A stretch of DNA of 7,353 bases from IMG/VR virus record IMGVR_UViG_2563366883_000002; one strand, 5' to 3'. Source of the stretch: a virus (taxonomy: Duplodnaviria > Heunggongvirae > Uroviricota > Caudoviricetes). The notes beneath the pieces were generated by a model. The model saw only the letters and a list, made by a program, of their open reading frames with translations. It ran no database searches and had not been told where the DNA came from. Shown one piece after another: positions 6,643-6,735 of the stretch. Within the stretch, counting starts at the first letter, position 1. The number at the start of each line of letters is the position of its first letter. The position numbers and the translations under genes were made by a program.

Positions 6643-6735
6643 CCCTGAAACGGGAATTTTTTCTCTGCGTGAGAGGGGGCGCGGTGTCCAAAGCGATCGT
6701 TTTTTTATGCCGGATGATACCCCCCCCGGGTCGGG

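Follow-up and report, generated by a model that had tools for sequence, protein, structure and literature searches.

A predicted HK97/phiE125-type cos site between the HNH endonuclease and small terminase genes of a lambdoid prophage

In phage HK97 (TerS, gp1; TerL, gp2; HNH protein, gp74), TerS binds just downstream of the cut, HNH-stimulated TerL introduces staggered nicks that leave 3' overhangs of 10 nt, and the DNA is packaged in the direction of terS and terL (PMC9410871, PMC11331095). One paper gives the overhangs as 10-nt 3' ends and, in its own discussion, as 12 nt. Cos cleavage by the terminase depends on, or is stimulated by, gp74, according to work as it is cited in PMC9410871 and PMC11331095; whether the HNH protein cuts one strand or only stimulates TerL is still open according to the authors of both papers. 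The TerS site of HK97 was mapped to +15..+29, A-tract included (PMC11331095). Burkholderia phages phiE125 and phi644-2 likewise possess 10-base 3' extensions, CGCCCGCTTC (PMC2920897). Much closer to the DNA studied here is the Stx1 phage Lys8385Vzw, described as a cos phage with 3' cohesive ends and with the cos sequence CGCCCCCCCT at the genome end (PMC7946995); these ends were inferred by PhageTerm from virion reads and are given in one sentence, with odd coordinates.

We analyzed a 7,353-nt stretch of tailed-phage DNA (the window). Comparison with these systems indicates that window 6625-6735 is very probably the cos site of a lambdoid prophage, served by an HK97/phiE125-type terminase and an accessory HNH endonuclease; we put the probability of this reading at roughly 0.88.

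Gene content and comparison with described systems

The minus strand carries all large ORFs of the window, which is a prophage packaging module, and all six packaging and head ORFs are full length (Table 1). The HNH protein matched Pfam HNH (PF01844, E 4.8e-07) and PHROG 589 HNH endonuclease (E 1.6e-44), and its homologues include the HNH proteins phiE125 gp70 (E 1e-8) and that of phage Alize (E 2e-6). TerS matched Pfam Terminase_2 (E 1.3e-08) and PHROG 641 (E 1.8e-68) and was 35% identical to TerS of Burkholderia phage PR2a (E 1e-24). TerL was 48-60% identical to the proteins of 3'-cos phages of Pseudomonas, Burkholderia, and Xanthomonas, and it belongs to the 3'-cohesive-end clade that also holds phiE125 gp2 (22% identity, E 1e-21) and HK97 gp2 (23%, E 2e-12). 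The HK97-fold capsid, S78-type prohead protease, and Phage_portal-family portal of the window are those of HNH-assisted 3'-cos systems. A protease-coat fusion comparable to that of the window is found in Gifsy-2 (PMC12315714). At the low-coordinate end of the window, near the portal gene (stop at 623), there is a direct repeat of 119 nt whose copies, 181-299 and 343-461, lie 162 nt apart and share 91% identity. Around this repeat, no long ORF was called on the minus strand, and the single frame translated from the minus strand of 1-625 contains nine stops.

Table 1. Features of the window. Offsets are in gene orientation, counted from the predicted top-strand cut.
Feature	Position	Strand	Description
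Portal	623..1987	minus	PF04860, E 4e-80
73-aa ORF		minus	Between the protease-capsid fusion and the portal in the listed gene order
Prohead protease (S78)/major capsid fusion	2199..4136	minus	Single 645-aa ORF; PF05065 and PF04586
terL	4200..5861	minus	553 aa; ATPase and nuclease domains; Pfam PF03354 and PF20441
terS	5858..6421	minus	187 aa; GTG start at 6421, GGAGG ahead
HNH-terS gap	6735..6422		314 bp; intergenic
Lineage-specific insert	6422-6624		About 200 bp between cos and terS; E. coli lineage
GTTAAC-containing repeat array	6494..6569		23-bp unit; inside the insert
Perfect palindrome CAGTTAACATGTTAACTG	6625..6642		+32..+49; candidate cosB-like binding site
Left-end block CTCACGCAGAGAAAAAATTCCCG	6651..6673	minus	+1..+23; A6 tract at +12..+17 (T6 on plus, 6657-6662)
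Predicted 10-nt 3' cohesive-end sequence	6674..6683	minus CGCGCCCCCT; plus AGGGGGCGCG	-10..-1 (6683..6674); by homology to Lys8385Vzw
GGACAC	6684..6689	minus	-16..-11; final AC precedes the predicted bottom-strand nick
CGATCGC block	6693..6699	minus	-26..-20
G8 tract (C8 on plus)	6720..6727	minus	-54..-47; conserved upstream cos element
HNH endonuclease gene	6736..7101	minus	121 aa; CxxC...CxxC and H-N-H motifs
DUF3950 gene	7143-7343	plus

In HK97, as in the window, the HNH gene adjoins terS across cos, and the 10-nt 3' end starts with CGC with AC ahead of it. The G9 tract of HK97 lies at -51..-43, where the window has its G8 tract a few bases farther upstream, and both carry CCCG beside an A/T tract about 20 nt after the cut. 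On the other hand, the HK97 TerL is homologous but only 23% identical to that of the window, and neither TerS against gp1 (E 0.91) nor the HNH protein against gp74 (E 0.096) gave a significant BLASTP match; assignment to the HK97 type is therefore based on TerL together with gene order and the architecture of the site. The left end of HK97 is unrelated to that of the window (8/30 in register), its protease and capsid genes are separate and preceded by the portal gene, whereas in the window they are fused and the portal gene comes after the capsid gene, and its TerS site was mapped experimentally, whereas that of the window is a positional guess.

The Burkholderia Stanholtvirus-like phages phiE125, phi644-2, Bcep176, and vB_PR2a share with the window GAC/CGC at the nick (here and below, a slash within a sequence or between two positions marks the cut or another junction) and an HNH gene at the right end, and their G tract lies at -48..-43. 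PR2a and Bcep176 also match the window in the left end CTCACGCGCAGAAAATTT, in TerS family (35% identity), and in TerL (56-58% identity), whereas phiE125 has a different left end and a TerL of only 22% identity. This group infects different hosts and is devoid of the insert of about 200 bp, which puts the terS start about 40 nt past the cut. Xp10, with a TerL of 48% identity, shares GGGGGTA, GATCGC, and GGACA with the window; unlike the window, it has extra genes and a split terL downstream.

The earlier note had likened the G+C-rich segment to lambdoid cohesive ends. In lambda (cosQ-cosN-cosB), a G+C-rich cohesive end does lie immediately upstream of the small terminase gene, as in the window, accessory elements stand on both sides of the nick in both, and the terS-side repeat array of the window is positioned like cosB. 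However, lambda has 12-nt 5' overhangs, GGGCGGCGACCT, and no HNH partner, the TerL of the window is not of the GpA type, and no sequence similarity between the window and lambda cos was found. The likeness is one of composition, since the predicted ends are of the HK97/phiE125 type with 10-nt 3' overhangs, not lambda-like 5' ends.

Position of the predicted cohesive end

The TerL proteins of the window and Lys8385Vzw are 98.6% identical, and the Lys8385Vzw record (MT225100) matches the window on either side of one point. The record ends in ...GGACACCGCCCCCCCT and starts with CTCACGCAGAGAAAAAATTCCCGTTTCAGGGCAGTTAACATG, which opens with CTCACGCAGAGAAAAAATTCCCG, and the minus strand of the window reads ...GGACACCGCGCCCCCT up to 6674 and CTCACGCAGAGAAAAAATTCCCGTTTCAGGGCAGTTAACATG from 6673. 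With 3' overhangs, nicks are predicted at 6674/6673 on the minus (gene-sense) strand and at 6683/6684 on the plus strand, inside 6671-6689. The cos of Lys8385Vzw lies likewise between HNH and terS in the same lineage, and its cohesive 10-mer is one substitution off that of the window (CGCCCCCCCT vs CGCGCCCCCT); at least 40 bases after the 10-mer are identical, and the right end was 87% identical over 86 aligned bases to a 161-bp cos query (window 6600-6760). The two differ in the G tract (G7 against G8 in the window) and in the basis of their ends, inferred from virion reads for Lys8385Vzw and from homology for the window. Lys8385Vzw was the sole record broken at cos among 94 matching phage records, the others being prophage-oriented. 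The ends of IMG/VR contigs of close relatives near terS were in the repeat array, not at cos, and are probably assembly breaks.

Searches with TerL (tblastn) recovered phages of Pseudomonas, Burkholderia, Xanthomonas, Stenotrophomonas, and others at 38-60% identity. At the right end of the linear Xp10 record stands an HNH gene (59R); the record ends in ...GGGTGGGGGTAGGTAATAAGTCGGCATGATCGCCGAACTTAAGCCGGACAGTCT and starts with CCCATTCGCAGAAAAATTACCCG, which is identical to +1..+30 of the window at 19/30 positions, ungapped and in register; upstream, GGGGGTA, GGCAT, GATCGC, and GGACA are common to both. ZP3, a relative of Xp10, was typed COS (3') by PhageTerm. One end of the Bcep176 record reads CGCACGTTCC CTCACGCGCAGAAAA, that is, it starts exactly at the equivalent 10-mer (longer reading, CGCACGTTCC CTCACGCGCAGAAAATTTTCCC). 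The phiE125 record ends in GGGAC/CGCCCGCTTC with the HNH gene just upstream, and HK97 ends in TGAC/CGCCGCCAAA; both 10-mers occupy the cos position of the 10-mer of the window.

When IMG/VR was scanned with a TerL alignment, 38 divergent loci were recovered, and all 32 that had at least 500 nt upstream carried the cos motif just upstream of terS. Three metagenome contigs start exactly at the predicted +1 (L151, CTCATCGAGGG; L160, CCCATTCGGAC; L172, CGCACGCAGAC), and two others begin off it (L164 at -13 and L158 at -7). A contig starting at the physical end of a genome is expected for linear virion DNA, and these starts suggest that contig ends can be used for mapping cos sites across this TerL family.

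These data bear directly on what the earlier note had proposed from the letters. The plus strand of 6671-6689 is gagagggggcgcggtgtcc, exactly as described there, and its G+C content is 79%, compared with 49% across the intergenic region 6422-6735. The HNH gene stands directly beside terS with the cos region alone between them, and the stretch flagged there is intergenic because the HNH stop codon is 6736-6738 and terS starts with the GTG at 6421. The proposal that cos lies between the two genes is borne out by the published cohesive end of Lys8385Vzw, which maps to 6674-6683 and coincides with the break of its record, and a cohesive end within 6671-6689 agrees also with the Xp10 and Bcep176 record ends and the three contig starts in register. 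The note had put its candidate site at 6643-6735; the conserved cos region extends beyond 6643 and reaches at least the palindrome at 6625-6642.

Conserved blocks and the terS side

The stretch is kept in blocks even in relatives with flanking proteins of no more than 34-70% identity, and the 21-mer at the predicted cut has a single occurrence in the window (0 expected from shuffles). The observation is thus more than chance. Nucleotide identity was 76-86% in the cos region compared with 70-77% in the coding flanks, in a set of loci biased by how they were found. Loci from the core-sequence scan are identical in the core by construction, whereas those from TerL protein searches are unbiased; because the identity gap is modest and the former bias exists, the stronger case is made by the block-wise conservation of the TerL-derived loci.

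Of 35 distinct cos regions, 33 (those of HK97, phiE125, Xp10, Alize, and PR2a among them) had a run of at least five G ending at -42..-52, against a background of 0.56% of 24-nt windows. The C8 run thus belongs to the conserved site; it begins 8 nt from the end of the HNH gene, and in close relatives the tract varies from G7 to G9. The T7 (6700-6706) and C8 (6720-6727) runs that the earlier note had seen flanking the G+C-rich segment are real, but "flanked" is loose because both are on its HNH side, and only C8 is conserved across relatives: T7 is lineage-specific, its position reading AAACATCGATCGC in relatives. The run on the terS side is the T6 run of the plus strand at 6657-6662, which in gene orientation is the conserved A-tract. 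Within the CGATCGC block, GA(T/C)CG is kept in Salmonella phage FSL SP-016 and eight Enterobacteriaceae loci, and Xp10 has GATCGC. At the bottom-strand nick, 34 of the 35 cos regions had AC at -12/-11 and C at -10. By eye, the nick region showed no two-fold symmetry; such asymmetry is compatible with two different active sites and proves nothing.

The left-end block CTCACGCAGAGAAAAAATTCCCG is kept in all TerL-derived relatives and is, by its position, a candidate TerS recognition segment. Its A-tract is a positional analogue of the mapped HK97 site, as no similarity is detectable between the two TerS proteins.

Farther toward terS, relatives with a Terminase_2-type TerS carry an inverted repeat, (G)TTAA-N4-5-TTAA(C), at +35..+50, and it was absent in relatives with another TerS type. 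In relatives, the palindrome element overlaps the terS start codon, and its ATG or GTG starts terS (M-L-T...); the distance from cut to terS in other genera is about 36-45 nt. The insert that separates cos from terS in the E. coli lineage was absent from Salmonella phage FSL SP-016 and from Citrobacter, Atlantibacter, Enterobacter, Buttiauxella, and Entomohabitans prophages. All six GTTAAC copies of the window are within 6498-6640 (0.86 expected), and most close relatives, Lys8385Vzw included, have one 23-bp unit fewer than the window. The terS start of the window, GTGCTGACA, is without the palindrome motif, whereas a perfect palindrome stays beside cos. Loss of the motif at the new terS start with retention at cos suggests selection on the DNA site itself, and is consistent with the palindrome being a cosB-like TerS-binding element.

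The ancestral terS Shine-Dalgarno sequence and ATG also remain beside cos. This ATG now opens a 24-codon ORF (6634..6560, minus strand) predicted to encode the hydrophobic peptide MLTGCPGIFAVFIFIIQFVVRKKC, and the single substitution in it among relatives, TGC to TGT, is synonymous.

A 20-mer core was also used for a genome-wide scan, which returned eight true loci and three chance matches in the high-G+C genera Streptomyces, Micromonospora, and Gemmatimonas, with no HNH, TerS, or TerL nearby. This small scan found no cos copy outside a terminase context, and hence no sign of cos-carrying satellites. In Burkholderia phage vB_PR2a (PQ789823.1; L098, 104-442), the gene upstream of cos, at the HNH position of its relatives, is annotated as "holin"; it is weakly similar to the HNH protein of the window (E 0.65) and may be a mis-annotated HNH gene.

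Alternative readings, mechanism, and meaning

The alternative that deserves most attention accepts a cos site but places the nicks elsewhere, with an overhang of 9 nt or a longer one starting from GGACA. The Xp10 record ends in GGACAGTCT, in which GGACA lines up with window 6685-6689 and not the 10-mer, and the overhang of Xp10 is one that we take to be 9 nt, so that the stagger may vary across the family. Contigs L164 and L158, starting at -13 and -7, point the same way, and PhageTerm can misjudge overhang length in homopolymer-rich sequence. Yet the 10-mer of Lys8385Vzw is a single base off and its record breaks at the same point, the Bcep176 record opens with its equivalent of the 10-mer, the overhangs of phiE125 and HK97 are each 10 nt, and the three contigs and Xp10 agree on +1; a different stagger is accordingly unlikely. 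Headful packaging from a pac site was rejected, as the TerL relatives whose ends are known package by cos, and the ends of records and contigs fall together at this site; so was a lambda-type cos (gpNu1/gpA, 5' ends), as TerL matches PF03354 and PF20441 only and the closest relative has 3' ends.

We consider it quite improbable that the site is a relic, that is, a cos homologue no longer cut here because the prophage is defective or never induced. Many such E. coli prophages are defective, and this copy might for that reason never be cut; the module occurs at up to 10 places per E. coli genome, and relatives bear IS insertions at cos (ISEc20) and in terL (IS629, phage 1717). All six ORFs of the window are nevertheless full length and every conserved cos block is intact. 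Least probable is that the stretch is no packaging site at all, but only the transcribed leader and translation-initiation region of terS, with headful packaging starting at a pac site in another place. The terS Shine-Dalgarno sequence and start codon of relatives do fall within about 45 nt of the conserved core, but the core is conserved even though terS of the window is about 250 nt away, conservation reaches the HNH stop upstream, where no leader function is expected, and the ends of relatives that carry this TerL are fixed here. An RNA or regulatory reading was also discarded: an Rfam search at a permissive E-value gave one chance-level match (12.4 bits against a gathering threshold of 44) and no family at threshold, no terminator-like site was found, and promoter-like matches, none convincing, were confined to the TTAACA repeats.

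For the preferred reading, a cos site cut by TerL with HNH assistance, the HK97 model is the best supported. A TerS-TerL-HNH holoenzyme would make two staggered nicks in concatemeric DNA during packaging, and the two predicted nicks would leave 10-nt 3' overhangs (CGCGCCCCCT and its complement). Packaging would then run from the left end, from 6673 downward, through terS and terL. The conserved blocks around the cut would serve for recognition: the G8 tract, CGATCGC, GGACAC, the A-tract-bearing +1..+23 block, and the GTTAAC palindrome. If HK97 is a guide, TerS would sit immediately past the cut on its downstream side and bring TerL and the HNH protein to the nick sites. The observations themselves are the gene content, the homology of the site, the agreement of physical or record ends of relatives with this point, and the conservation of blocks; cutting of this copy and the pairing of proteins with blocks and of nucleases with strands are inferred from them.

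A further idea is tentative, and we regard it as possible but rather doubtful: the poly-G tract about 45-54 bp upstream, together with the invariant AC/C, may be a functional cos element, and the E. coli insert, having moved terS away but kept and multiplied the GTTAAC palindrome, may mark the palindrome as the true cosB/TerS site. If so, the poly-G element could be a cosQ-like termination signal or a docking site for the HNH protein, the poly-G and AC/C element would recur across phages with HNH-assisted 3'-cos packaging, with HK97 and phiE125 at one end of the range and Xp10 and the Stx siphophages of E. coli at the other, and the GTTAAC palindrome would not be mere coding sequence. A narrow literature search found no paper treating the cos site, HNH, and poly-G together.

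Many Stx1a-, Stx2a-, and Stx2c-converting siphophages, including BP-4795, 1717, 2851, and YYZ-2008, match the window segment at 87-97% identity, and the HNH-cos-terS piece was found in 1,488 of 5,426 complete E. coli genomes, frequently in more than one copy. It is thus a very common lambdoid-prophage packaging module. In the PPompW prophages (L106; LC567822.1, PPompW_132418, 2720-4178), an IS110-family element, ISEc20, lies inside the cos poly-C/G tract at a point equivalent to window position about 6723 (CCCCC/IS/CCCCCCC), and tRNA genes and Q stand in place of the HNH and lysis side, so that this cos is disrupted. In Stx2 phage 1717 (NC_011357.1, 33510-36483), the terL homologue is split by IS629 and matches in three pieces.

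The kind of site is textbook, and the cos of this lineage has already been briefly reported. What is mildly new is comparative only: the G tract and AC/C are conserved from HK97 to Xp10, and an insert parts cos from terS while the palindrome is kept. Current understanding is unchanged, and the practical value is in annotation. A cos position at base level may help to orient prophage records, to read coverage breaks in induced-culture reads, and to search for cos-carrying satellites or transducible DNA. In HK97, which nuclease cuts which strand is still open (PMC11331095), and the G tract, the AC/C nick context, the A-tract, and the palindrome would be targets for mutagenesis in that model system.
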